In this document: positions 2,200 to 46,158 of the stretch, piece by piece | How positions within the stretch are numbered: the stretch's first letter is position 1 | Layout of the letters: the number at the start of each line of letters is the position of its first letter | DNA from: Escherichia phage ETEP102 | Sequence record: OR979723.1 | DNA length: 48,422 nucleotides | Direction: 5' to 3' (one strand) | The notes under the pieces: model-generated | What the model saw: the letters and a program-made list of their open reading frames with translations, nothing else | Databases searched by the model: none | What the model was told of the DNA's origin: nothing | Program-made: the position numbers and the translations under genes

Positions 2200-2217
2200 T
2201 AGCACGAATTGCTAAAC
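2199..2217 (+). promoter_or_regulatory. ATAGCACGAATTGCTAAAC motif copy
   Basis: Palindromic core TAGCA-N5-TGCTA directly after stop codon; 22 nt from TTGCTA to TATGAT (2237-2242); gene ATG at 2273. Confidence 0.5.
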
Positions 2218-2272
2218 AACAAATCGGGTAGTCAGCTATGATTACCCTATCAAAAACGAAGAGGAAATGATT

Positions 2273-10370: not shown

Positions 10371-11645
10371 ATGGTAAAAGCAGATTCATACGCAAGCCAA
10401 TTCCTCTCGGGGGATGATGGTAGCGAGATTTACGGCCACTTCGGTAGCGCATACCTTGAGCCGCAATACGCTGATTCACTGTACGTGGCCAACTCACTGG
10501 TTCGTAGAATTGTTGATACTGTGCCAGAGACTGCGATCGCGGCAGGCTTTCATATCGACGGCGTTAATGATGAGGGTGAGTTCTGGTCTCGCTGGGATTA
10601 TCTTAAGGTTAACGAGTCAATCTCTGATGCATGGTCATGGGCGCGTCTATTTGGTGGGTCCGCAATCGTGGCTATCGTCAAGGACAATCGCGCTCTAACA
10701 AGTCCTGTTCGTGAAGGGGCAGAACTTGAATCACTTCGAGTGTATGACCGTAGCCAGATTAAGGTTTGGACTAAGGAGGAGAATCCTCGCAACGTTAGAT
10801 TTGGTAAGCCACTAACATACCGAATAAATCCAACTGGAAGTGATACGTTCTACGATATTCACTATTCACGCGTTCACGTAATGGATGGAGATAAGGTTCC
10901 AAACTCACTTCGTAGAGGTAATGACGGATGGGGTGCAAGCGTCTTAGTCCCTGACCTCATGGCGGCAATCAATGACTACGACGTCTGTGAGAAACTGGCA
11001 ACTCAGTTACTGCGCCGTAAGCAACAGGCGGTATGGAAAGCCAAGGGATTGGCTGAATTGTGCGATGACAATGAAGGATTCGGTGCTGCAAGGTTAAGGT
11101 TGGCGCAGGTTGATGATAACTCAGGAGTGGGGCGAGCGATTGGCATCGATGCAGAGGCTGAGGAATACGACGTCCTGAACTCTGATATTAGTGGCATCGA
11201 CTCGTTTCTGGAGAGTAAATTCAACAGGATTGTTGCTCTGAGCGGCATTCATGAAATCATTCTTAAAGGTCAGAACACTGGCGGCGTATCATCAAGTCAG
11301 AACACAGCATTGGAGACTTTCCATAAGATGGTTGATCGCAAGCGCAACGAGGAGCTGCTTCCAGTGCTTGGTTTCTTAATTCCGTTCATCGCAACGGAGA
11401 AAGAGTGGTCAGTTGAATTTAACCCACTGGCTCAGGAGTCCAATCTGGACCGCGCCAAGGTACTGAAGGATAACGTTGACTCAATTACTGCACTCATCAC
11501 TAATGGAATAATGGATGCTGATGAGGCGAGAGATACCTTGCGTGCAATTGCTCCAGAAGTTAAGATTGGTGAAGGTTCAATTGAGACAGAGGTAACGATT
11601 AATGAAACAAGTAACGACCCGCTGGACGTATCCGCAGGCGATTGA
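10371..11645 (+). CDS. portal protein
   Basis: 424-aa ORF directly after large terminase; ATG 10371 with GGAG upstream. Confidence 0.7.
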   Translation: MVKADSYASQFLSGDDGSEIYGHFGSAYLEPQYADSLYVANSLVRRIVDTVPETAIAAGFHIDGVNDEGEFWSRWDYLKVNESISDAWSWARLFGGSAIVAIVKDNRALTSPVREGAELESLRVYDRSQIKVWTKEENPRNVRFGKPLTYRINPTGSDTFYDIHYSRVHVMDGDKVPNSLRRGNDGWGASVLVPDLMAAINDYDVCEKLATQLLRRKQQAVWKAKGLAELCDDNEGFGAARLRLAQVDDNSGVGRAIGIDAEAEEYDVLNSDISGIDSFLESKFNRIVALSGIHEIILKGQNTGGVSSSQNTALETFHKMVDRKRNEELLPVLGFLIPFIATEKEWSVEFNPLAQESNLDRAKVLKDNVDSITALITNGIMDADEARDTLRAIAPEVKIGEGSIETEVTINETSNDPLDVSAGD

Positions 11646-18670: not shown

Positions 18671-21600
18671 ATGACAGATAAACTTGCAGGGCTATCCCTT
18701 GGTGTTGACGTTTCCCAGGTTGATAGGGCGGTGAAATCACTGGAGAACTTCTCCAAGGCTAACAATAAGGCGGCTGGCTCTCTCTCTGATTTTGTCGATA
18801 ATGAACAGGTAGCAAGGGTGAAGGCAAAAGAGCTTGCGGCTGAATTGGCACGACAGCGTGCCGAGTTCCAGAAGCTTGAGGGAGTCATTGACCCGACAGC
18901 TAGCAAAATGGCACGACTTAAAACTGCTAGTGAGCAACTTGATGCGGCGTGGCAAAAGGGAGTTGTACCTGATAAAAAGTTTTTCGAATTAGGTGAAATG
19001 CTTGAGGCGCAGAATAACGCGCTCATCAAGTCACGCTCTATATTGACAGCAGAGGGGCGTGCTGCTGCGGAGAATGCCAAGCAGAAAGCCAGAGCCAAAG
19101 CTGATGCCGATAGCTTCATTCGAAGCCTTGAGCGTCAAGCACAAGCGGCTACGATGACGAAGCAAGAAATGCTTGAGCTTAGGGCAGCTGAGTTGGGCGT
19201 ATCGGACAAAGCGGCTCCTTTGATTTCTAAGTTAAATCAGCAAACGGAAGCATTCAAACTCAGCGGAATCTCAGCGGGTGAATACCGAAACGCAATGAAG
19301 ATGCTACCTGCGCAGATTACTGATGTTGTAACATCAATGGCGACTGGGATGCCGATATGGATGGTTGCCATCCAGCAGGGCGGACAGATCAGCGATTCAT
19401 TCGGCGGAATTGGTAACGCGATGCAGTTAGCTAAGGATGGCGTGATTGATTATATATCATCTATTACAGAGCTTAAATCAGCATTCGCAGATGTAAGAAC
19501 CTTGGGTCAAGATGCGATTGCCAGATTCGGACGTGCGGCAACGATTTTCGGTGGCGGAATTTTCACTGCGGTTGCTGCTATTGGTTATGCGGCTTACTCC
19601 TCATACTCTGAGCTGAGTGAGCTTCAAAGCGCTATCGTTCTGAGCGGTGGATATGCGGTTCAATCAGCGTCCGAAATGGATACATTGACCGATGCGATCA
19701 CCGAAAACAGCAAGGCAAGCGGAGGGGCGGTTAATGACATCGCTGTATCTATGGCTAAGTCTGGCAAGTACACATCCGATCAAATCAAAATCATCACCGC
19801 ATCCACGGCAGATTGGGCGACAGTAACAAGCACAAGCGCAGATAAGATCCTTGCGGAGTTCGATAAGATTGCAAAAGATCCGGTTAGCGGACTGATAGAG
19901 TTAAACAAGACATATAACTTCCTAGAGAAAGGCCAGTTAACATACATCAACAAGCTTAAGAAAACGGAAGGTCAAACTGCGGCGGTTACTGCTGCGACGA
20001 AAATTTTCGCCGATGTAATGGATGATCGAATTGCAAAGCTTGCGGAATCAGCAAACCCACTAGAGAAAATGTGGTGGAATATCAAGAAATGGTCTAGCGA
20101 CGCGTGGGGTTCCGTTTCCGACAGGACGCTAGGGGCGCTAAATCTGATCACCGATGTAGTTGCTGGCACGGTTGAGCAGGTCAAGGTGATCCTCAACTAT
20201 GGAGATCAGTACATTGGTGAGTTCGTCATTTCAGCTACAAAGGCGATGCAAGGGATTCCTGGCATGGGCACTTTCGGTCAATCGGTGATCGACGAGCAGC
20301 AGAAAATTGTTGACGCAGCCAAAAAACAAAACGAGGAGTTGTTAAAATCCATCGCAGAGCGCGATGCTAGGATCAGAAAGGGGGAAGCTGGATACCTTGA
20401 AGCGGGCAAGAATGATAAGGTAGGAGACGGTTATTCATCAAAAACAAAAGAAGCTGTAGACAAAGAGGCCGAGGATCTAAAAAAATTAAACAAGGAAAAG
20501 AAATATTCAGTCGATCAGGGGGTTAAAATCACCGAACAGTACGAAATGGATATTGTCGCCTTGCAGTCTCAGCTAAAAGTATTGCAGGAGCATAAGACCA
20601 TCAACGACAGCATCAGCCAGCAGCGCAAAACGCAATGGAACGAGCAAGCGCGAATCCTGATTCTGGAGGGTATTGCGGCGGATCAGAAAGGGAGAGCGCT
20701 GACTCAGGAAGAGAAATCAATCCTTTTAAACAAGTCCAAGATTCTAGACCTTGCGGAACAGAAAGCGGCGTTGGGGGATCAGATTGTTGTCCAAGAGCGG
20801 TTGAACAAGTTGCAGGACGATTCAGAGAAGTTCGTGAATAAGACGCTGGCGGCAACAAGATCGCTCAATGATACCAAGGCGATGGGCGACAGGGACGCAA
20901 AACGCTACGCTGAACGAGAGGCTATGAAAGCCAATTGGACGAGCAAGGGCGGGAAAGATACTGATCCAGCATTCAAGAGAATGATTGATGAGCAGGATAA
21001 GTACTACGCGGCGGAAGATGCGAAGCGTGCTGACTGGTTGGCTGGGGCTGAAAACGCTTTTGAAAACTACGGCGAAGCGGCAACGGATATGTATACCAAC
21101 GTAGGAGGCATTGCAACTAATGCTCTGACTGGTTTGTCTGATATGATGACTGAGTTTTTAACTACCGGTCAGGCCAACTTCGCTGACTTCGCAAAGAGCA
21201 TTATCAGCCAGATTATTAAGATGATCACGCAGATGGTAATCTTCAACTCAATCTCCGGTATGATGGGAGGCTCGGCTGGTGGTAAGGGATTCTCCTTCGC
21301 TAACTCAGGATGGTTCGCTGCTGGCGGGTACACTGGAGACGGTGGGAAATATGAGCCTGCTGGAACAGTCCATAAAGGTGAGTTTGTCATGACCAAGGAA
21401 GCGACAAAGCGTATCGGCGTTGATAACCTTTACAGAATGATGCGAGGTTATGCGAATGGCGGTATGGTTGGCGGAGCTTCTAGAGGTGGGGGCGGAAGTG
21501 CAATCATGGCTGGCGGAGTGACAATCGGGAGTATCCCTGTTAGCATCAATAACAGAAGCGATCCGAATGGAATGGAGCAGGGCGTGAAAATGATTTTCAA

Positions 21601-21673
21601 GCAAATGATTCAGGAGTCGTGCTCTCAAGGCGGCGAGGTTTACAACTACATCAACGGCAAAGCAGGAGCGTAA
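18671..21673 (+). CDS. tail tape measure protein
   Basis: 1000-aa largely alpha-helical protein after chaperones; Gly-rich C-terminus. Confidence 0.8.
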   Translation: MTDKLAGLSLGVDVSQVDRAVKSLENFSKANNKAAGSLSDFVDNEQVARVKAKELAAELARQRAEFQKLEGVIDPTASKMARLKTASEQLDAAWQKGVVPDKKFFELGEMLEAQNNALIKSRSILTAEGRAAAENAKQKARAKADADSFIRSLERQAQAATMTKQEMLELRAAELGVSDKAAPLISKLNQQTEAFKLSGISAGEYRNAMKMLPAQITDVVTSMATGMPIWMVAIQQGGQISDSFGGIGNAMQLAKDGVIDYISSITELKSAFADVRTLGQDAIARFGRAATIFGGGIFTAVAAIGYAAYSSYSELSELQSAIVLSGGYAVQSASEMDTLTDAITENSKASGGAVNDIAVSMAKSGKYTSDQIKIITASTADWATVTSTSADKILAEFDKIAKDPVSGLIELNKTYNFLEKGQLTYINKLKKTEGQTAAVTAATKIFADVMDDRIAKLAESANPLEKMWWNIKKWSSDAWGSVSDRTLGALNLITDVVAGTVEQVKVILNYGDQYIGEFVISATKAMQGIPGMGTFGQSVIDEQQKIVDAAKKQNEELLKSIAERDARIRKGEAGYLEAGKNDKVGDGYSSKTKEAVDKEAEDLKKLNKEKKYSVDQGVKITEQYEMDIVALQSQLKVLQEHKTINDSISQQRKTQWNEQARILILEGIAADQKGRALTQEEKSILLNKSKILDLAEQKAALGDQIVVQERLNKLQDDSEKFVNKTLAATRSLNDTKAMGDRDAKRYAEREAMKANWTSKGGKDTDPAFKRMIDEQDKYYAAEDAKRADWLAGAENAFENYGEAATDMYTNVGGIATNALTGLSDMMTEFLTTGQANFADFAKSIISQIIKMITQMVIFNSISGMMGGSAGGKGFSFANSGWFAAGGYTGDGGKYEPAGTVHKGEFVMTKEATKRIGVDNLYRMMRGYANGGMVGGASRGGGGSAIMAGGVTIGSIPVSINNRSDPNGMEQGVKMIFKQMIQESCSQGGEVYNYINGKAGA

Positions 21674-21676
21674 TAA

Positions 21677-22024
21677 ATGGCCCTAGACGTGTTTAATTGG
21701 TGCGTACAGGTTCAGGATGGTGGCGGCGTAATGACCGTCACCAACAATGACAGACAGGTGCAATTTGGTAATGGTTTTCGTCAGGTTGCATCGTCTGGAT
21801 ATAACACTGAGCGACGAGAGTATGCGATAAGTTATGTGGGAAAGGACTGGATTGAGGTTAGAGAGTTTTTAAGATCTCACCGACTAAAAGCCTTCGCCTT
21901 CACCCCGCCGGAAGACAGGATCGGCGTTTTCCTACTGAAGCCTGATACGCTGAATACTCAGCCAATAGGTCGAGGTCTTCTTGTTGTAAAATGCACCATT
22001 GTGGAAACATTCACAGCGGTGTAG
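21677..22024 (+). CDS. minor tail protein (lambda M-like)
   Basis: 115-aa ORF immediately after tape measure; size and position. Confidence 0.65.
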   Translation: MALDVFNWCVQVQDGGGVMTVTNNDRQVQFGNGFRQVASSGYNTERREYAISYVGKDWIEVREFLRSHRLKAFAFTPPEDRIGVFLLKPDTLNTQPIGRGLLVVKCTIVETFTAV

Positions 22025-24199: not shown

Positions 24200-27100
24200 A
24201 TGATTAAAAATAATGTAGTGACTGGCCGAAAGGGTGGAAGCAGTAAACCTCATACCCCACAGGAGATGGAAGACAACCTGATCTCAATCAACAAGATTAA
24301 GGTTTTGCTCGCTGTCAGTGATGGTGAGGTTGACGCGAATTTCTCATTAAAGGACTTATATCTTAATGATGTTCCTGTAATTGCACCCTCTGGAGAAGTT
24401 AACTATGAAGGCGTTAAGGCTGAGTTTCGCCCAGGCACACAGACGCAGGACTACATCAAAGGATTTAACGACACGGCGGCTGAGTTCACTGTAGGTCGTG
24501 AATTGAAAACAACTACGCCTTACGTGATCTCGGTAACGAATAAGCAGCTATCAGCCGTTCGCGTAAAAATCCTGATGCCTCGAGGCGTTACAACGAAAGA
24601 AAACGGCGATATGGTCGGGGTTGTCGTGAAGTGGGCCGTAGATATGGCGGTTGATGGAGGGAGCTACCAGGAAGTTTTGCTTGACACTATAGACGGGAAA
24701 ACACTAAGCGGATATGACAAAACTAAGCGTATTGACTTGCCGGCGTTTAATAGTCAAGTCCTGCTGCGGGTTCGGCGGGTTACTCCTGATTCAACTAATT
24801 CGCGCGTCGTTGACACGATAAACATACAGTCTTACGCCGAGGTTATTGATGCAAAGTTCCGTTACCCTCTGACTGGTCTTGTTTACGTTGAGTTTAACAG
24901 CGAGCTATTCCCGCAGATTCCAAGCATTAGCACGAAAAAGAAATGGAAGATCATCAACGTTCCGAGCAACTACGACCCAGTACTGAGAGAATACAGCGGC
25001 ACATGGGATGGCAGTTTTAAAAAAGCGTGGTCAAATAACCCAGCGTGGGTGCTTTATGATTTGATTACCAATCAGAGATATGGACTCGACCAACGAGAGT
25101 TGGGTATCGCCGTTGATAAGTGGTCGCTCTATGATGCTGGTCAATACTGCGATCAGAAAGTTCCTGACGGTCACGGAGGGTTGGAGCCTCGCTACCTTTG
25201 CGACGTGGTAATCCAGTCTCAGGTTGAGGCTTACAATCTGGTTAGAGATATTTGCTCAATATTCCGAGGGATGAGCTTTTGGAACGGCGAGAGCCTTTCA
25301 ATTGTCATAGACCGACCGAGAGAGGCTTCATACATTTTCACTAACGATAACGTCGTTGATGGCTCATTTGCCTATACGTTCGCAAGTGAAAAAAGCATGT
25401 ATACAACTTGTAACGTCACATTTGACGACGAGCAAAACATGTACAGCCAGGATATTGAGGGAGTATTCGACCTTAACGCATCGTTACGGTTCGGGCACAA
25501 CCCTACAAGCATCACGGCGATCGGATGCACTCGACGCAGTGAGGCTAACCGTCGAGGCCGATGGGTTCTTAAAACAAACCTTCGCAGCACGACGGTAAGT
25601 TTTGCAACTGGTCTTGAGGGTATGATCCCGATGATTGGCGACGTAGTGGCGATCGCTGATAACTTCTGGTCAAGCAACCTGACTCTCTCATTGTCAGGTC
25701 GCGTCATGGAAGTTTCTGGTCTGCAAGTGTTCACTCACTTTAAGGTTGATGCTCGCGCTGGTGATTTTATCATCGTCAACAAACCTGATGGAAATCCTGT
25801 GCGCCGCACGATTTCAAAGGTGTCGGCAGATGGCAAGACGATTGAGCTTAATGTTGGTTTTGGCTTTGATGTTCAGCCTAACACTGTTTTCGCAATCGAC
25901 AGAACTGACATAGCTTTGCAGCAATACGTCGTAACTGGAATCACGAAGGGCGACGGTGATGATGAGTTCACATACAGCATCACGGCGGTTGAGTATGACC
26001 AAAACAAATACGACGAGATCGACTACGGCGTAAATATTGATGACCGACCAACCAGTATTGTAGATCCTGACAACATGCAGCCACCTAAAAACATTGTAGT
26101 TTCATCATACTCTCGCATTGTCCAGGGGATGAGCGTAGAAACAATGGTTATTGGATGGGGTAAGGTTCAGTACGCAAGCAAGTACGATGTGCAGTGGCGA
26201 AAGGATAACGGTAACTGGATGAACGTACCGCGCACAGCAAGCTCAGAGGTTGAGGTAGAAGGTATTTATGCTGGTAATTATCACGTACGCGTAAGGAGCA
26301 TCTCAAGCGGCGGAAACACGTCCCCATGGTCTGACGTTGTCAGCGTTGGGTTGACTGGTAAGATTGGGAAGCCAGATAAACCAACGGTCATAACCGCGTC
26401 TGACGACCAGGTATTTGGGATCAGAGTTAAATTGGGCTTCCCGGAAGGTTCTGGCGACACTGCCTACACTGAATTGCAGCAGATACCAGATAATGGTGCC
26501 GGAGGTCACACTGGTGAGGAGAATGCAAGTCTATTAACAATGATTCCTTACCCTCAGTACGAGTACTGGCACTCAACATTACCAGCAGGTTATGTAAACT
26601 GGTACAGGGCGAGATTGGTAGACAGGATTGGGAACGCCTCTGACTGGTCTGATATTGTTCGCGGAATGTCAAGCGATGACGTTGAGTCCATCATTGGAGA
26701 AATAAAGGTTGATATCGAGGGTTCCGAGGGTTTTAAGTACCTACAGCAGAACTCCATTGATTCAAACGTAGCTATTCAGGCGCAAGCGGAATCAATCCTT
26801 GAGAACGCCCTTGCAAACGACACAGACGTACGTCGAATGACCAAGGAGAACGGCAAGAGAAAGGCTGAATACGTTCAGGCGGTGAATCTTATTGCCGATG
26901 AAACTCAGGCTCGCGTAGAGGCTCTCACGCAGCTTAAAGCGCAGATTGATGATGAGGTCGTAGCCTCAATAACTGAAGTTCAGACGGCACTAGCCACCGA
27001 AACGGAAGCAAGGACCACGGCGGATACAGTTCTGAGCGCTCAGCTTGGAGATACTCAGGCAGCACTGAATGAAAAGCTTGATTCCTGGGTGGATGCGGAA

Positions 27101-27580
27101 TCCGCTGGTGCTCAGTACGGTGTTAAGTTAGGTCTAAAATATAATGGGGTTGAGTATAGCGCAGGGATGAGCATGGAACTTGTTGGCAGTGGTGCTGGCG
27201 TTAAGAGTCAGCTCATCTTTGACGCAAGCAGATTCGCTATCAGTAATGGCATTGGATCTGGTTCCGGTCAGTGGGCATTGCCTTTTGTTGTTGAGAGCAA
27301 CCAGGTGTTCATACAGAGCGCCGTGATCAAGGATGGCTCAATCACTAACGCCAAGATTGGTAACAGGATTCAATCAAATAACTACGTGGCAGGTAGCACT
27401 GGCTGGGCGATTGATAAATCAGGAAGTGCTGAATTTAGTAACGCAACCGTAAGGGGCAACCTGTACGCAAACAGCGGAAACTTCGCATTCAACGGCACCA
27501 ATAACACGGTTCAGATTAACGGAAACGGAATCACTGTTAACCTGGCGAATGGTGGGAGGGTTGTTGTAGGAACATTCTAA
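24200..27580 (+). CDS. tail tip / central fiber host-specificity protein (lambda J-like)
   Basis: 1126-aa ORF following the M/L/K/I-like genes. Confidence 0.8.
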   Translation: MIKNNVVTGRKGGSSKPHTPQEMEDNLISINKIKVLLAVSDGEVDANFSLKDLYLNDVPVIAPSGEVNYEGVKAEFRPGTQTQDYIKGFNDTAAEFTVGRELKTTTPYVISVTNKQLSAVRVKILMPRGVTTKENGDMVGVVVKWAVDMAVDGGSYQEVLLDTIDGKTLSGYDKTKRIDLPAFNSQVLLRVRRVTPDSTNSRVVDTINIQSYAEVIDAKFRYPLTGLVYVEFNSELFPQIPSISTKKKWKIINVPSNYDPVLREYSGTWDGSFKKAWSNNPAWVLYDLITNQRYGLDQRELGIAVDKWSLYDAGQYCDQKVPDGHGGLEPRYLCDVVIQSQVEAYNLVRDICSIFRGMSFWNGESLSIVIDRPREASYIFTNDNVVDGSFAYTFASEKSMYTTCNVTFDDEQNMYSQDIEGVFDLNASLRFGHNPTSITAIGCTRRSEANRRGRWVLKTNLRSTTVSFATGLEGMIPMIGDVVAIADNFWSSNLTLSLSGRVMEVSGLQVFTHFKVDARAGDFIIVNKPDGNPVRRTISKVSADGKTIELNVGFGFDVQPNTVFAIDRTDIALQQYVVTGITKGDGDDEFTYSITAVEYDQNKYDEIDYGVNIDDRPTSIVDPDNMQPPKNIVVSSYSRIVQGMSVETMVIGWGKVQYASKYDVQWRKDNGNWMNVPRTASSEVEVEGIYAGNYHVRVRSISSGGNTSPWSDVVSVGLTGKIGKPDKPTVITASDDQVFGIRVKLGFPEGSGDTAYTELQQIPDNGAGGHTGEENASLLTMIPYPQYEYWHSTLPAGYVNWYRARLVDRIGNASDWSDIVRGMSSDDVESIIGEIKVDIEGSEGFKYLQQNSIDSNVAIQAQAESILENALANDTDVRRMTKENGKRKAEYVQAVNLIADETQARVEALTQLKAQIDDEVVASITEVQTALATETEARTTADTVLSAQLGDTQAALNEKLDSWVDAESAGAQYGVKLGLKYNGVEYSAGMSMELVGSGAGVKSQLIFDASRFAISNGIGSGSGQWALPFVVESNQVFIQSAVIKDGSITNAKIGNRIQSNNYVAGSTGWAIDKSGSAEFSNATVRGNLYANSGNFAFNGTNNTVQINGNGITVNLANGGRVVVGTF

Positions 27581-27583
27581 AAT

Positions 27584-27610
27584 AAAAGCCCCGAAAGGGG
27601 CTTTATCTTT
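27584..27610. terminator. bidirectional rho-independent terminator
   Basis: AGCCCC-GAAA-GGGGCT flanked by A-run and T-rich run between convergent genes. Confidence 0.65.
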
Positions 27611-28565
27611 AATACATATTTGGAAGGTATGGAAGTGACATTGAGATGTTTGTGTTGAATGGGAACTGAGCACCAGTCTGAGTCGAGTAGTTACCAATTA
27701 CGCTGCCAAACTCACTCCTAACGGATCCTCCTGACATTACAACTCCCTTGTATCGAAGGTTATTGTACCCGCCAGTTACCCTTGTATATGCGCCAGTCCT
27801 GAGTATTGGGAAGTAACCACCTCCTATTGACTGGAATGAGTTACTCAATTGAAGGAATCCACCAAGCACAAATGGCCTTTTAACGGTTGAGAAAACAACC
27901 TGACCTGAAGGATTCACTATGGTAATCCCCCTGCCTCCAACTGGAGCTGTGTTGTTGAAAATAACCAGATCGACACTGGCACTAGCCGCTACATTGTCAA
28001 TTCCTGTGTATGTATTGCTTCTACAGAGAATTCTTGAACCATCAAACTCAAGCGTCACGTTTGGATTATTCCATCTTCCGAAAGGAACGCCAGTAACTGG
28101 AAGTGTGTAGCTACCATTCACGGTAACTGTTCCAACATACTGAGCCGTTAAAAGCCTTGAGTTGGTAGTGATCGATACAAAATCAGTTGAGTCGGCAACA
28201 AGAATACCCTGACCAGTAGAGGCGCCCATCACCTCAAAGCAATTACCTGAGAAGTTTATCAACCTACCATTAGCGCCGTTAAAGTTACTAACGTTTATCC
28301 GTCCTTGCGTGTTTGATACGCGCTGGAATCCATTCAAATAATAAACCTCTGGTATTACATCGAAATCTATTACATCAACAGCCTTTGTTGGTAGCATGAA
28401 TGCAGTAGATCCGCTTGTGTGAGCAAGTCCAAATGTCAACCCACCATTTGATGAGTCAAATCCAGATGTTGGAACGCTTCCTGTTACGTTTGGCATTCTA
28501 AGTCCTGCCGTAATCTCCATCGCTGGCCTTCCATCATTCAGGTCGATTAGAATACCCTGTGGCAT
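27609..28565 (-). CDS. putative receptor-binding / tail fiber-like protein
   Basis: 318 aa rich in Gly/Ser/Thr/Asn/Val; ATG 28565 with AAGGAG 8 nt upstream (track start GTG 28574); TAATG-coupled to upstream lipoprotein gene. Confidence 0.4.
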   Translation of the reverse strand: MPQGILIDLNDGRPAMEITAGLRMPNVTGSVPTSGFDSSNGGLTFGLAHTSGSTAFMLPTKAVDVIDFDVIPEVYYLNGFQRVSNTQGRINVSNFNGANGRLINFSGNCFEVMGASTGQGILVADSTDFVSITTNSRLLTAQYVGTVTVNGSYTLPVTGVPFGRWNNPNVTLEFDGSRILCRSNTYTGIDNVAASASVDLVIFNNTAPVGGRGITIVNPSGQVVFSTVKRPFVLGGFLQLSNSFQSIGGGYFPILRTGAYTRVTGGYNNLRYKGVVMSGGSVRSEFGSVIGNYSTQTGAQFPFNTNISMSLPYLPNMY

Positions 28566-28807
28566 TATTTCCACTCCTTAGAGCCGTGGTCTTTAACGGA
28601 GCCGCCGTAACCGCCACCATTAGCCTTAATTCCGTCGTAGCGCACGTCAACTTCGCCGGAAGGTACAACCACACCATTTTTCCATTTAGCTACGCACGCG
28701 CCGTTTGCTTGCGTTGCACACCAACCGTCAGGACGATGACCTGATGAACAACCAACCGTCATGATTACTGCCGCTGAGATGATTGCTAATTTGATGAAGT
28801 TAGTCAT
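28565..28807 (-). CDS. small lipoprotein, Cor/Llp-like superinfection-exclusion candidate
   Basis: 80 aa; [22 protein letters not shown] signal peptide plus lipobox; GAGGA RBS; function inferred from size and context. Confidence 0.5.
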
Positions 28808-28873
28808 TTTGTATTCCTCATTAAGTTGTTTCGTTTCGATGGAGTAACTATACACGCAACGAGCGATCGAGTC

Positions 28874-28893
28874 TTTAGCTATTCGTGCTATTG
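28874..28893 (-). promoter_or_regulatory. ATAGCACGAATAGCTAAA motif copy (minus orientation)
   Basis: Minus strand: CAATAGCACGAATAGCTAAAG, about 23 nt, TATAGT, leader CCATCGAAACGA, then lipoprotein ATG 28807. Confidence 0.45.
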
Positions 28894-28966
28894 TATACGC
28901 GTAACCGATGTAACTCGATGTATACAATATCATCCGCGGAAAATGATATACGCGCTGTTACGCCAA

Positions 28967-29056
28967 TTTACGCATTGGTTACATTAAAATATCTATATAT
29001 ATCAACCTTTTACTCTTATTATTATTATATATATATTACTGTGTATATCATGTAAC
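28967..29056 (+). repeat. AT-rich ~88-bp element, copy B
   Basis: TTTACGCATTGGTTACATTAAAATATCTATATATATCAACC...ATTATTATTATATATATATTACTGTGTA...GTAAC. Confidence 0.6.
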
Positions 29057-29322
29057 TACTTCTATAGAGTGTTCCGCTTATAAATTTCTAATATGTACAT
29101 TTATACAGTGTTTAGTCACACGCACACCAATGCACCATCTGTTGAAAATGATATACACGATATACAAGCTATTTACATTGAGCTATGGCTGGTCCTGATA
29201 GCCTTTTTATGTAACTAACACCAATGTATACATCGAATTACAGCTATATACGTGTAACCACTTGACTAATGCGACTAAGCGAGTATAGTTAGCCACATCA
29301 ACAACAAGTGAGGATTAAAGAG

Positions 29323-30363
29323 ATGACCAAGCCACTATTTCAATACTTCACGTCAGAAGAAATGAGCAACGATTTCTATCACAGCAAAGACGAATGGACC
29401 GCTGAGTATGTGTCAGGTTCATCACTAAGCAAGATTCACAGCACTTGCCCTGCGGCGTGGAAGTTTGAAATGAACGCTACGACTAAGGCTCTTGTTTTCG
29501 GCACTCAGTCACACACTAACTTTGAGAGCAAGGCGATGTTTGAACGTCAATATCGCCGCGCACCGAAAGAAAGCGAGATTGAAAACGTGATAACAAGCCA
29601 GGCAGCTTTAGCAACTAAGTTAAAATCATTTGGCCTGACTGGTACAAGCGGCAAGCAATATCCAGAGTTGATTAAAATGATGGTTGATTGTGGTGAAGAC
29701 CTCAACGTCATGTGGCTGATTGATATGATCGCACAGTGTCAGGCGTGGTCCGATGGCGTGGAACTTGTTAAGGCGGAGGACTACGACGCCTGCGTCAGTA
29801 TGCGCCAGGTTCTTGAGATGATTCCTGAACATAACGCCTGCATGAACAGTGAGACTGCATTCCGTGAGTATTCATTGTTTGGCGTGATTTGTGGCGTTAA
29901 AGTTAAGGTGCGACTTGACAATGTTGATATCGTTAAGGATCCAGAGGCAATCCGGCGCATGGGTTACGATCCTGAAGTCCACCCAGAGATTGTCGTTATC
30001 ACAGATTACAAAACGACGATGAGCGCTAACCCGATTGAGTTTCCTCGCCTGGCATTCAACCTTGGTTATTACCTCAAGATGGCATTGCAGCGTGATTTGT
30101 TCGTTAAGTGCTTTGAAGAGACACGCCCAGTAGTAGTCCGATTGTTGGCGCAGGAGAAGAAAGAGCCTTACTTGCCTATGGCTTACCGCATGAGTAGCGA
30201 TCAGCTTAAGATTGGTCGCGCGCAGTATATGAGCGTTATTCATACTTTCTCAATGTGCGAAGCGAATGACGTATGGCCTTCATACAGCAACGGAGAACCA
30301 GAGATTGAGCTTGAGACTCCTGATTGGATTAAAAAGCAGTTCAAGCACATTCTGGAAGCGTAG
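29323..30363 (+). CDS. PD-(D/E)xK recombination exonuclease (YqaJ / lambda Exo-like)
   Basis: KVRLDNVD ... VVITDYKT D-(D/E)xK arrangement; ATG 29323 with GAGGA upstream; upstream of annealing protein and SSB genes. Confidence 0.5.
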   Translation: MTKPLFQYFTSEEMSNDFYHSKDEWTAEYVSGSSLSKIHSTCPAAWKFEMNATTKALVFGTQSHTNFESKAMFERQYRRAPKESEIENVITSQAALATKLKSFGLTGTSGKQYPELIKMMVDCGEDLNVMWLIDMIAQCQAWSDGVELVKAEDYDACVSMRQVLEMIPEHNACMNSETAFREYSLFGVICGVKVKVRLDNVDIVKDPEAIRRMGYDPEVHPEIVVITDYKTTMSANPIEFPRLAFNLGYYLKMALQRDLFVKCFEETRPVVVRLLAQEKKEPYLPMAYRMSSDQLKIGRAQYMSVIHTFSMCEANDVWPSYSNGEPEIELETPDWIKKQFKHILEA

Positions 30364-30439: not shown

Positions 30440-31096
30440 ATGCGTACATCAGAGAAGTTTTCGACTGTTTCATCAGCTCTAATTGCAGCTAAAAAGCAGT
30501 TTGCTATCGCAAAGAAATCAGGATATAACACTCACCTAAAAAGTCACTATTCAAACCTGACTGACGTTTTAGAGGCCATTGAGCCAGCATTGAAAGAGCA
30601 TGACTTGATGGTGATTCAGTCAAATCTTGATACATCAACCGAAAAGGTTATGCATATTGAGACGCTCATACTTCACAGCTCCGGAGAATGGCTTTCCTTC
30701 CAGTACAACATGCCGATCGAGAAGATTAGCGCGCAGGCATACGGATCTACAACTTCATACGGTCGCCGTTACGCATTATGCGCTGCGCTCGGAATCACTC
30801 AGAGCGATGACGACGCAGAAATCGCTAAGCGCACAGCAGCAGATTACAAAAAGCTGATCACCAATTGTGAAAAGCTGGAGGACCTTCAGGTTATTTACAA
30901 GAGCGCGAAGGGTTCACTTGGCGCTGCAGAGTGGAAGATCGCAGAAGACCATTTGCAGAAGCGAAAGGCTGAGCTTAGCATTGGTAACGCTCGCGGATTC
31001 CAGCCAGCCAAAAAGGCTGATCCTCAAAAGGTTGATGATAAGGTTGCAAATGCACCGTCAGAACCTGTACAATCTGAATCCATCGAAAAATTCTAA
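30440..31096 (+). CDS. putative single-strand annealing protein (Erf-like)
   Basis: 218 aa between exonuclease and SSB; call by context and size. Confidence 0.4.
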   Translation: MRTSEKFSTVSSALIAAKKQFAIAKKSGYNTHLKSHYSNLTDVLEAIEPALKEHDLMVIQSNLDTSTEKVMHIETLILHSSGEWLSFQYNMPIEKISAQAYGSTTSYGRRYALCAALGITQSDDDAEIAKRTAADYKKLITNCEKLEDLQVIYKSAKGSLGAAEWKIAEDHLQKRKAELSIGNARGFQPAKKADPQKVDDKVANAPSEPVQSESIEKF

Positions 31097-33559: not shown

Positions 33560-33579
33560 TTTAGCACGAATTGCTAAAG
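33560..33579. promoter_or_regulatory. TAGCACGAATTGCTAAAG motif copy (orientation ambiguous)
   Basis: Perfect palindromic core between primase gene terminator and tail fiber start. Confidence 0.4.
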
Positions 33580-33603
33580 TGCAGTATAGCATTGCTTTAG
33601 GCA

Positions 33604-34606: not shown

Positions 34607-35080
34607 TTACTCTTTAGCTTTTCGTGCTGCTTCGTTAGCGGCCTTAATCTTGCGCCACGATCGACATTCTGGCTTCGTAGCTAATTCAGCATCAGTAACA
34701 ACGCGCAGCATGTGACGTTTTTTGCACCGGAGTGTCAGCGGCTTTCCGTTGCCATCGAATTGCAGATCCGGTCGGCAAAAAGTCGCGCGAAAACCCTCTC
34801 CAGTTCGCTTGTATCGGTTGTGCGCCAGTTGAGCGCCTCGGGCCGACATCATGCCCCTCTTGAACCATTCCTCAACCGCCTGGCGACTAACCTTCAGTTG
34901 CTTTGCGATATTGGCCTTCGTTCCGTAGAAGTCGAGAACCATCTCCAGTCGCGCCAGAAGCCCGGCCTTTACTTCATCTTTTAAAACGTAGTAACCTGAA
35001 GGTCGTTTTCGTTGCTTTTTGTCTTCAGTTCGGACTGTTCCGTTGTTGCCGTTAATGGTTCGCTTGTCGACTGCATTCAT
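34607..35080 (-). CDS. HTH DNA-binding regulator
   Basis: Helix-turn-helix ANIAKQLKVSRQAVEEWFKRG; basic tails; divergent from helicase gene. Confidence 0.5.
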   Translation of the reverse strand: MNAVDKRTINGNNGTVRTEDKKQRKRPSGYYVLKDEVKAGLLARLEMVLDFYGTKANIAKQLKVSRQAVEEWFKRGMMSARGAQLAHNRYKRTGEGFRATFCRPDLQFDGNGKPLTLRCKKRHMLRVVTDAELATKPECRSWRKIKAANEAARKAKE

Positions 35081-37769: not shown

Positions 37770-38184
37770 AGGTGACTACCTGGAGTATTACACTCCAGAC
37801 AAAACGGATACGTGGACTGAGAACAAGCACCAGGTCGACTGCGTAACCTGGACAAAGGTTAGGCATGGTGAGTTATTGTTCTGGCACGCTGTTAATGAGA
37901 ATAAAAAACACATTCATACCGCTATAAAGGATGCTCAGAGCGGGTTATTGAAGGGTGTTAGTGACTTTGTATTCCTTCTCGGTCCGTTCGGTAAATACCC
38001 GTTTGGGGCCATAGAATTGAAGAGGGTAAATAAGAGCGGAAAAGGCAAAGCGTCACCAGTCAGCAAGGAGCAGAAAGATTTCCTTCGTCTCGTTCGTGAG
38101 CGTGGCGGTTTCGCGGCGGTGGCGTACGGCCAGGAAGAATATAAGAAAGCGGTTCATGATATGCTGAATAGCACGAATTGCTAA
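37753..38184 (+). CDS. VRR-NUC-type PD-(D/E)xK nuclease
   Basis: GVSDFVFLL ... GAIELKR arrangement; ATG 37753 (track start 37696). Confidence 0.5.
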   Translation: MAIKDKGDYLEYYTPDKTDTWTENKHQVDCVTWTKVRHGELLFWHAVNENKKHIHTAIKDAQSGLLKGVSDFVFLLGPFGKYPFGAIELKRVNKSGKGKASPVSKEQKDFLRLVRERGGFAAVAYGQEEYKKAVHDMLNSTNC

Positions 38185-38186
38185 AG
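38168..38186 (+). promoter_or_regulatory. ATAGCACGAATTGCTAAAG motif copy
   Basis: Encodes last residues NSTNC of upstream gene; 22 nt to TGTATTAT (38204-38211); leader CATCGAAACGAAG; ATG 38251. Confidence 0.5.
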
Positions 38187-38250
38187 ACGAATCGGTGAGG
38201 TGGTGTATTATCACTTCATCGAAACGAAGTGACCAACTAAGGGAATCAAA

Positions 38251-46074: not shown

Positions 46075-46137
46075 TTTGATTTCCTTTATGTGTTTCGTTT
46101 CGATGAGATGAATATACAGGAAAAGCCCAGAATGGCT

Positions 46138-46158
46138 TTAGCAATTAGTGCTATTTTA
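46138..46158 (-). promoter_or_regulatory. ATAGCACTAATTGCTAAA motif copy (minus orientation)
   Basis: Minus strand: follows TAA of methyltransferase gene; 22 nt to TATATT; leader CATCGAAACGAAAC; ATG 46074. Confidence 0.45.

Follow-up and report, generated by a model that had tools for sequence, protein, structure and literature searches.

The genome of the T1-like coliphage ETEP102 (sequence record OR979723.1) was analysed as a single stretch of 48,422 nt, referred to here as the window. A minus-strand cassette in its tail region leads from a predicted motif-type promoter through a lipoprotein gene and a gene for a 318-aa protein to a bidirectional hairpin, and all of the elements given for it in a preliminary description of this DNA are present (Table 1).

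Table 1 Features of the cassette and its surroundings in the window
Feature	Position	Strand	Basis or detail
Cassette: lipoprotein gene and 318-aa gene	27609-28807	minus	all described elements present
J-like central tail fibre/tip attachment protein, 1126 aa	24200-27580	plus	Pfam and PHROG 31
Bidirectional intrinsic terminator hairpin, common to the J-like gene (plus) and the cassette (minus)	27585-27604	both	8-bp stem
Predicted RBP gene of the central tail fibre, 318 aa (DUF6453/LptD-RBP family)	27609-28565, stop codon included	minus	Pfam, PHROG and PDB match
Coupling junction	28565-28578	minus	AGGAG Shine-Dalgarno (28574-28578) within the last lipoprotein codons, and TAATG
Predicted outer-membrane lipoprotein gene, 80 aa, Rtp45-type exclusion factor	28565-28807	minus	PF24052, 9rps_D
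Conserved 5' leader (TTACTCCATCGAAACGAAACA...)	28808-28846	minus	alignment; Shine-Dalgarno GAGGAA (28814-28819) before the lipoprotein ATG
Predicted cassette promoter	28847-28890	minus	recurrent motif and cross-phage conservation

The larger product of the cassette had been described as rich in glycine, serine, threonine and asparagine, and these four residues do make up 40.3% of the protein. Profile searches assign it to DUF6453 (PF20051; E 1e-135, 452 bits), matching the whole of the profile (1-291 of 291), and to PHROG 1265 (E 2e-119). It also matches PDB 9rpt_C, the receptor-binding protein (RBP) of Oekolampad on LptDE, at 46% identity (E 8.6e-67), with residues 2-318 aligned to 2-321. This end-to-end match to a solved chain fixes the fold of the ETEP102 protein, which we would expect to be a double β-sandwich with tip loops that insert into LptD. 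Of the homologues compared, the closest are those of CY1 (87% identity), DTL (85%) and CJ19 (75%), followed by the OzMSK RBP (65%), SH6 (60%) and Rtp44 (50%); more distant are Oekolampad and JeanPiccard (both 46%) and ChristophMerian (43%). The comparisons with OzMSK (65%), Bas18 (46%), Bas02 (46%) and Bas19 (43%) each extend over 308-318 aligned residues, and coverage by tblastn is complete (residues 1-318, 100%). Membership of the LptD-specific RBP family of small siphophages, to which Rtp44, Bas18_0025 and OzMSK_038 belong, has been defined by >30% identity and >99% coverage (bioRxiv 10.64898/2026.04.02.716166); the ETEP102 protein lies above this threshold, has the full-length profile match and is encoded directly downstream of a gpJ homologue. 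A GTG codon 9 nt upstream in the open-reading-frame list would lengthen the protein to 321 aa; since all homologues begin M[PGA]QGI, 318 aa is the right length.

The 80-aa product carries a T-V-G-C lipobox, in agreement with the VGC motif noted previously, with a signal peptide at residues 1-19 and Cys20 as the lipidated residue. Cys20 is followed by SSG, which places a serine rather than an aspartate at +2, and sorting to the outer membrane is therefore predicted. The protein spans the complete PF24052 profile (1-80 of 80; E 1e-38, 131.6 bits against a cut-off of 27) and matches PDB 9rps_D, which is Rtp45, with an E value of 3e-37. Sequence identity is 91% to the DTL protein, 82% to Rtp45, 81% to OzMSK_039 and 36% to the SH6 protein. 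Cys20, Cys30 and Cys38 are conserved between the ETEP102 lipoprotein and Rtp45, the latter two forming the disulfide pair, and the strand at residues 30-35 reads CATQAN, compared with CATQAS in Rtp45. In the Rtp45 structure the Cys30-Cys38 disulfide is present and strand 30-35 pairs with LptD residues 318-323 (PMC12685063). A Gly-rich insertion of four residues (ANGGGYGG) distinguishes the ETEP102 lipoprotein from Rtp45 and is found also in DTL, CY1 and OzMSK.

The two genes meet at AAG GAG TGG AAA TAATG CCA, with TAATG at about 28565-28569, so that the lipoprotein stop codon and the RBP start codon overlap by a single base at 28565. The reported TAATG overlap was thus confirmed, and the junction AAGGAGTGGAA(A/T)TAATG is kept in 7 phages (ETEP102, CJ19, Rtp, OzMSK, CY1, JeanPiccard and DTL). 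At the other end of the cassette, the J stop (27580) and the RBP stop (27609) of these convergent genes are separated by a gap of 28 nt. The bidirectional terminator that had been proposed here is well founded: the hairpin has an 8-bp GC-rich stem with 5 GC pairs and T-runs on either strand, scores as a terminator in both directions and has a minimum free energy of -15 kcal/mol (z -3.18), with 0/200 shuffled sequences as stable.

The J-like protein that ends at this hairpin matches the Pfam families FNIII-A_GpJ, Phage-tail_3 and Phage_Tail_Tip (residues 956-1094) as well as PHROG 31, and by tblastn its tip shares 93% identity with the corresponding part of the phage P817 protein. Its C-terminal tip domain is presumably the docking site of the RBP. 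The arrangement of gpJ followed by an RBP locus has been described (PMC8594841; bioRxiv 10.64898/2026.04.02.716166), and J itself makes certain relatives dependent on a second receptor, as with NupG for Bas01 (bioRxiv 10.64898/2026.04.02.716166). The order of J, terminator and then RBP and lipoprotein genes on the opposite strand is shared by CJ19, Rtp, OzMSK, Oekolampad, CY1, JeanPiccard, DTL and SH6. RBP and lipoprotein identities to ETEP102 are incongruent across phages, at 60% versus 36% for SH6 and 50% versus 82% for Rtp, a sign that the genes of the cassette have been shuffled. Kuravirus podophages also have all three parts of the module, as distant copies.

Upstream of the lipoprotein gene lies an operator-like motif, TAGCACGAATAGCTAAAGAC, at 28871-28890 on the minus strand, which contains the imperfect inverted repeat TAGCA-N5-AGCTA. 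The predicted promoter consists of a -35 element AAGACT (28875-28870), a 17-nt spacer and a -10 element TATAGT (28852-28847). The motif TAGCACGAATWGCTAAAGAC is present in 6 copies in the window where 0 are expected, and four of these, the cassette's own and three others, are accompanied by a 17-nt spacer, a TATAGT-like -10 element, the leader CATCGAAACGAA, a Shine-Dalgarno sequence and an ATG. In CJ19, Rtp, DTL, OzMSK and JeanPiccard the motif, the position of the -10 element and the leader are kept upstream of the lipoprotein gene, with a variable spacer. Recurrence of the motif together with its conservation in these five other phages upholds the motif-type promoter of the preliminary description, and it is on this recurrence and cross-phage footprint that the call rests, not on a generic sigma-70 scan. 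That scan did not pick the cassette promoter, owing to its weak -35 element, and its count of matches in the region was not above chance. A second candidate promoter motif, GTATATCATTTTC, was rejected, as just two exact copies exist, each within the intergenic hub, with no enrichment across the window. The 18-nt inverted pair TGTATACATCGA[AG]TTACA is likewise specific to the intergenic hub.

LptD is the essential outer-membrane exporter of LPS. Taken together, the homologies make it very probable that the 318-aa protein is a tail-tip protein that binds LptD and that the lipoprotein locks LptD from the inside, excluding other phages. The idea of a receptor-blocking lipoprotein paired with a receptor-binding protein thus gains support from the homology to Rtp45 (82%) and to the Oekolampad and OzMSK RBPs, which would imply LptD(E), not FhuA, as the receptor; both receptor use and the exclusion phenotype of ETEP102 are predictions from sequence.

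The published work on related loci gives these predictions their experimental counterpart. Mutants in lptD are resistant to phages carrying this type of locus (PMC8594841), the deletions Y658-Y678 and L394-V396 being ones that block LptD phages (Maffei 2021), and OzMSK fails on strains with an lptD loop deletion (PMC13035648). In a set of 64 T1-like phages, LptD was the only receptor with which the RBP family, taken at >30% identity, correlated (bioRxiv 10.64898/2026.04.02.716166). Cryo-EM structures are available for LptDE with the RBP (PDB 9RPT) and for LptDE with Rtp45 (PDB 9RPS); the Oekolampad RBP, which was purified in soluble form, was resolved bound to LptDE from the extracellular side. 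Rtp45 docks on LptD from the periplasm, forces extracellular loop 4 outwards and thereby blocks attachment of the RBP (PMC12685063). The Rtp45 hairpin passes through the LptD lumen, which is the path of LPS, and both Rtp45 and its complex are mispredicted by AlphaFold3 (PMC12685063).

We propose that transcription would start at the phage-specific motif promoter, as its conservation suggests, and run to the hairpin shared with gene J, and that translation of the lipoprotein and the RBP would be coupled by the conserved AGGAG...TAATG junction. The RBP, a predicted soluble β-sandwich protein, would dock non-covalently through its conserved N-terminus on the C-terminal tip of the J-like fibre, and its distal loops would enter LptD through its extracellular mouth while the LptDE translocon for LPS is open, leading to irreversible adsorption. 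These RBP steps are modelled on the Oekolampad RBP and on the RBP of the LptD-dependent phage OzMSK, given full-length identities of 46% to the former and 65% to the latter. After export and lipidation at Cys20, the lipoprotein would reach the inner leaflet of the outer membrane, where it would attach to the LptD barrel from the periplasm, at a site between LptE and LptM. Its β-hairpin, reaching up the LptD lumen, would move extracellular loop 4 by about 20 Å, so that the RBP could no longer bind; this part of the scheme follows Rtp45, as the two lipoproteins are 82% identical and the Rtp45 complex is solved. As a result, superinfecting LptD-dependent phages would be excluded, and progeny would be spared wasteful adsorption to debris of the lysed host.

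The subtype that the ETEP102 RBP shares with CY1 and DTL could in principle have kept this architecture while moving to another outer-membrane receptor in place of LptD, or to the LptD of a different host range. The RBP is indeed only 43-50% identical to Rtp44, Bas02, Bas18 and Bas19 and 65% identical to OzMSK, residues 31-50 form its least conserved block, and homologues are present in phages of Klebsiella, Cronobacter and Enterobacter. Published analysis places the absolutely conserved residues of the family at the base rather than at the receptor-contacting tip, so that the details of binding may differ in ETEP102. We nevertheless consider a change of receptor improbable, as the lipoprotein retains both the LptD-pairing strand and 82% identity to LptD-bound Rtp45, and a cognate lipoprotein would be useless after such a switch. 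The exclusive correlation with LptD among the 64 T1-like phages argues in the same direction, as does the requirement for LptD of OzMSK, the closest experimentally tested relative. It is scarcely credible that the 318-aa protein is a host membrane protein or a ‘moron’ instead of a virion component, a reading that comes from database labels only (RefSeq, and PHROG 1265 with ‘membrane protein; moron, auxiliary metabolic gene and host takeover’). The protein has no signal peptide and no hydrophobic segment (the maximum Kyte-Doolittle value over 19 residues is 1.07), its full-length homologue is a soluble RBP whose structure shows it attached to LptDE from outside the cell, and in all relatives the locus directly follows gpJ; we therefore rejected the label.

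A further question is whether exclusion is the main role of the lipoprotein, which might instead throttle LPS export, weaken the outer membrane late in infection or act as a spanin-like lysis factor. Occupation of the LPS path by the Rtp45 hairpin is compatible with such a role, one homologue is annotated as ‘u-spanin’ in its phage record, and the text of the Rtp45 paper contains neither an in vivo exclusion assay nor physiology data for an Rtp45-type lipoprotein (PMC12685063). Yet the gene always accompanies that of the RBP rather than the lysis genes, the structural clash with RBP binding is direct, and E. coli with leaky expression of Rtp45 alongside LptDE yielded purifiable material (PMC12685063). 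Receptor blocking and modulation of LptD can moreover coexist, and a main role other than exclusion appears very unlikely. More speculatively, lipoproteins of the ANGGGYGG type might, besides blocking the receptor, modulate LPS export or outer-membrane integrity through the LptD lumen and act as a universal lock against all LptD-binding phages, whatever their RBP subtype. Such a lock is conceivable because the pairing of RBP and lipoprotein types changes from phage to phage, although we hold this extension of the exclusion role to be doubtful.

Exclusion through LptD, as proposed here, adds nothing conceptually new, as work published in 2021-2025 had already covered this type of locus, the receptor it targets and the structural basis of both binding and exclusion. 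The analysis does put names to two genes whose entries in public records mostly read ‘hypothetical’ or, incorrectly, ‘membrane protein’. From sequence it also predicts LptD as the terminal receptor of the phage, a prediction of use in choosing resistant production strains and in designing phage cocktails; an lptD loop deletion has already served as a resistant production strain approach against OzMSK.

The lipoprotein had previously been called Cor/Llp-like, a term that stands as a functional analogy but not as a statement of homology. We compared it with T1 Cor and T5 Llp using Pfam profiles and blastp of the mature parts. No significant similarity was found between the mature parts of T1 Cor and the ETEP102 lipoprotein (E = 3 over 13 aligned residues), and Cor falls short of the PF24052 cut-off of 27 with 17.7 bits, in a match over residues 3-51 that reaches from the N-terminal signal peptide into the N-terminal half of the protein. 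The mature part of T5 Llp gave E = 211, and Llp has no PF24052 match at E <= 1; homology to either protein was accordingly discarded. The T5 pair of pb5 (oad) and Llp follows the same logic, a dedicated RBP with, next to it, a small outer-membrane lipoprotein that binds the receptor from within the periplasm and keeps the RBP from binding, although Llp acts on FhuA by long-range allostery whereas Rtp45 displaces extracellular loop 4 sterically through the barrel lumen (PMC12685063). The T5 proteins are unrelated to those of ETEP102, with pb5 at 640 aa against 318 aa for the RBP; the pb5 and llp genes are divergent rather than overlapping, and the T5 receptor is FhuA whereas that of ETEP102 is predicted to be LptD. 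Cor (T1, phi80, N15, HK022) is also a small lipoprotein, encoded beside gpJ in T1-like phages, that excludes phages with the same receptor, and it shares with the ETEP102 lipoprotein its genomic position relative to the recE/erf genes. The Cor cassette, however, goes with FhuA (PMC13164509), in contrast to the LptD predicted for ETEP102. The partners of T1 Cor, ST31 and ST32, are encoded by two upstream membrane-protein genes, have no Pfam match, are unrelated to DUF6453 and are co-directional with J; this gene pair is not present in ETEP102, where a single DUF6453 gene lies between J and the lipoprotein gene.

A much closer likeness is seen with the Rtp44/Rtp45 locus of coliphage Rtp and those of the BASEL phages Bas01, Bas02 and Bas18 and of OzMSK, termed the LptD-specific ‘bona fide RBP locus’ downstream of gpJ, which resemble ETEP102 in gene order, orientation, stop/start overlap, motif and leader. 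Loci of the Rtp44/Rtp45 type also share with it the combination of DUF6453 and PF24052 and the three lipoprotein cysteines, and their RBPs align with that of ETEP102 from end to end. Within this framework the ETEP102 RBP forms, with those of CY1 and DTL, a subgroup separate from Rtp44 and Oekolampad, the lipoprotein has the Gly-rich four-residue insertion that Rtp45 lacks, and the genome backbone is closest to CJ19 (Nouzillyvirus) rather than to Rtpvirus. ETEP102 therefore adds another member to a locus type that has already been characterised (Maffei 2021; Black 2025; Dunbar 2025).

The window represents the genome of a T1-like siphophage; its left 24 kb is nearest to Escherichia phage CJ19 (Drexlerviridae, Nouzillyvirus; 89% identity, 64% of the query). 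A minus-strand cassette is flanked by the J-like tail-tip gene on one side and by recombination genes of the recE/erf type on the other; within it the stop codon of a lipoprotein gene overlaps the ATG of a second ORF (TAATG), with an AGGAG Shine-Dalgarno placed within the final lipoprotein codons. The lipoprotein, the overlap and the Gly/Ser/Thr/Asn-rich ORF named in the preliminary description are all in place, and the two genes are probably translationally coupled. The same gene order was found in all eight relatives examined (CJ19, Rtp, OzMSK, Oekolampad, CY1, JeanPiccard, DTL and SH6).

Positions of the cassette, its surroundings and related elements in the window
Feature	Position	Strand	Remarks
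TAGCACGAATWGCTAAAGAC copy	2200-2219	+	
J-like tail-tip gene	24200-27580	+	Pfam FNIII-A_GpJ, Phage-tail_3, Phage_Tail_Tip
318-aa ORF (RBP)	27609-28565	-	downstream gene of pair
Lipoprotein precursor gene, 80 aa	28565-28807	-	upstream gene of pair
Intergenic hub	28808-29307		500 bp, divergent
TAGCACGAATWGCTAAAGAC copy	28871-28890	-	
18-nt inverted pair	28909-28926 and 29225-29242		
Terminator-like hairpin	29187-29203	+	
Recombination gene, PDDEXK-like	29308-30363		
Recombination gene, ERF	30440-31096		
TAGCACGAATWGCTAAAGAC copy	33562-33581	+	
Candidate regulator gene	34607-35080	-	PHROG 2856
TAGCACGAATWGCTAAAGAC copy	34610-34629	-	
TAGCACGAATWGCTAAAGAC copy	38169-38188	+	
Second lipoprotein-like gene, 90 aa	38251-38523	+	PHROG 7420 (unknown function)
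TAGCACGAATWGCTAAAGAC copy	46134-46153	-	

The 318-aa protein (Gly+Ser+Thr+Asn 40.3%) belongs to Pfam DUF6453 over its whole length (E 1e-135), and one solved protein aligns with it from end to end: chain C of PDB 9RPT, 9RPW and 9RQI (for 9RPT, E 8.6e-67, residues 2-318 against 2-321). These matches support the proposal that the lipoprotein's partner is the receptor-binding protein (RBP); in 9RPT, chain C is the Oekolampad RBP, bound to LptDE. Its N-terminus is conserved, 12 of residues 1-23 being invariant, and probably docks on the J tip. According to a 2026 preprint on 64 T1-like phages, this RBP family, delimited by >30% identity at >99% coverage, associates specifically with the outer-membrane LPS exporter LptD; the window protein lies above both limits.

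The lipoprotein carries a lipobox Cys20 together with Cys30 and Cys38 (...30ATQANGAC38...). Its whole length fits Pfam PF24052 at 131.6 bits (cut-off 27), and it matches Rtp45 of phage Rtp, chain D of PDB 9RPS, with E 3e-37. [quoted passage not shown] The window lipoprotein retains all three cysteines of Rtp45 and five of the six residues in the LptD-pairing strand (CATQAN, against CATQAS in Rtp45). Compared with Rtp45, it has a Gly-rich insertion of four residues close to the C-terminus. The Rtp45 paper (PMC12685063) reports no in vivo exclusion assay in its text, so exclusion at the level of the family rests on structure; we infer that the window lipoprotein has the same phenotype.

For homologues, LptD dependence and the binding of both the RBP and Rtp45 to LptDE, the complex with LptE, are known. 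Mutations in lptD block phages that carry this RBP locus (PMC8594841), and two strains with lptD loop deletions resist OzMSK (PMC13035648). LptD is the probable receptor of the window phage; beside these data, a switch of receptor within this RBP subgroup appears improbable. It is very unlikely that LptD modulation or lysis is the main task of the lipoprotein. RefSeq ('membrane protein') and PHROG 1265 ('membrane protein, moron') offer another reading of 27609-28565, as a non-virion protein. However, the 318-aa protein has neither a hydrophobic nor a transmembrane segment, and the homologue whose structure is solved is a soluble RBP. The moron reading is scarcely credible, and the database labels for this family are outdated or wrong.

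Identity of RBPs and lipoproteins of related phages, each to the window protein
Phage	RBP	Lipoprotein
CY1	87%	85%
DTL	85%	91%
CJ19	75%	78%
OzMSK	65%	81%
SH6	60%	36%
Rtp (Rtp44 / Rtp45)	50%	82%
Oekolampad (Bas18)	46%	37%
JeanPiccard (Bas02)	46%	75%
ChristophMerian (Bas19), Nonagvirus	43%	no annotated lipoprotein gene adjoining RBP gene

The RBP and lipoprotein do not co-vary among these phages: SH6 combines a closer RBP with a distant lipoprotein of the Oekolampad type, while the opposite holds for Rtp. This indicates that the halves of the cassette have been shuffled, as would be expected if any LptD-locking lipoprotein serves any LptD-binding RBP. Other arrangements were also seen. Klebsiella Webervirus TAH8 has a DUF6453 homologue (L010:2001-2957, ~32% identity) directly after gpJ and co-directional with it, with no annotated lipoprotein gene beside it. 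In Enterobacter phage F20 (NC_043469.1) a PF24052-type lipoprotein match lies ~10 kb from the RBP match (10994-11224 and 20832-21785).

The 28-nt gap separating the 318-aa gene from the convergent J gene contains a hairpin with a GC-rich 8-bp stem and T-runs on either strand, which scores as a terminator in both directions (folding z-score -3.2) and bears out the proposed bidirectional terminator common to the cassette and the J-like gene. The motif-type promoter claimed for the cassette was likewise identified. The motif TAGCACGAATWGCTAAAGAC, an inverted repeat (TAGCA-N5-TGCTA) leading into a -35-like GAC, has six copies in the window, where 0 are expected. After four of them, that at 28871-28890 (-) included, a ~17-nt spacer comes next, then a TATAGT-like -10, the conserved leader CATCGAAACGAA, a Shine-Dalgarno and an ATG. 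Ahead of the lipoprotein gene, the motif, -10 position and leader are kept in CJ19, Rtp, DTL, OzMSK and JeanPiccard, whereas the spacer between motif and -10 differs among them and, in OzMSK and JeanPiccard, the sequence further upstream, a methylase gene, is unrelated. A real promoter would be expected to leave such a footprint, and the element is probably used. A generic sigma-70 scan, whose match count was at chance, did not pick it because its -35 is weak. The 2006 paper on the Rtp genome reportedly proposed that conserved inverted repeats are sites for Rtp52, a putative regulator, and we take TAGCACGAATWGCTAAAGAC to resemble these.

The hub is packed with repeats. Its 18-nt inverted pair, TGTATACATCGA[AG]TTACA (0.05 expected), places one copy upstream of each of two divergent promoters, and a 41-nt direct repeat containing GAAAATGATATAC is present twice, spaced 205 nt. 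The terminator-like hairpin has no obvious preceding gene. The left part of the hub is kept in CJ19, Rtp and DTL. Elsewhere, a second small secreted or lipoprotein-like gene, beginning MKKSIIALLAVLAMAG, lies directly under another TAGCACGAATWGCTAAAGAC + CATCGAAACGAA copy, with a DNA methyltransferase gene next. Its product gives an LPAM_1 match just below threshold and could be another surface-modifying or exclusion factor.

Kuravirus podophages (~77 kb) carry the module in pieces, with distant copies of all three parts (MN03, MT129653.1, L013:3983-5987; SU10, NC_027395.1, L014:2483-2764). A 322-aa trimeric 'tail tip fiber protein' shares the Phage_Tail_Tip domain of the J C-terminus and corresponds to the 'putative tail tip fiber protein' of SU10 (PDB 7Z4B chain EA, E 6e-209). 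The adjoining gene encodes a 344-aa DUF6453 protein (E 1.2e-24) whose only PDB match is 9rpt_C (E 1.7e-9), and the early region encodes a 93-aa PF24052 lipoprotein (124 bits). These similarities suggest that LptD may be the terminal receptor of kuraviruses; no such link was found in the literature searched.

The cassette finding is accurate and its preliminary interpretation essentially right; 'Cor/Llp-like' holds for function by analogy and not for family membership. T5 Llp does not match PF24052, and T1 Cor, with 17.7 bits, falls short of the cut-off of 27; its match spans residues 3-51 and starts in the signal peptide. Between mature parts, blastp gave no significant similarity to the window lipoprotein (Cor E = 3, Llp E = 211). 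The Cor cassette has another layout and goes with FhuA (PMC13164509). The signal peptide and lipobox, MKKLITIIAAAFILTGC, are identical in the SH6 lipoprotein (L009:1768-1998) and T1 Cor (L011:5624-5851), but their mature parts are unrelated; this pattern suggests that two Tunavirus exclusion genes recombined precisely at the lipobox. Together, the scores, layout and receptor argue that the window lipoprotein belongs to neither family, though it probably works like Cor and Llp: by analogy, it would be a periplasm-facing lipoprotein disabling its own phage's receptor, with a mechanism that is steric, not allosteric (PMC12685063). The cassette rediscovers a system already characterised genetically and structurally.
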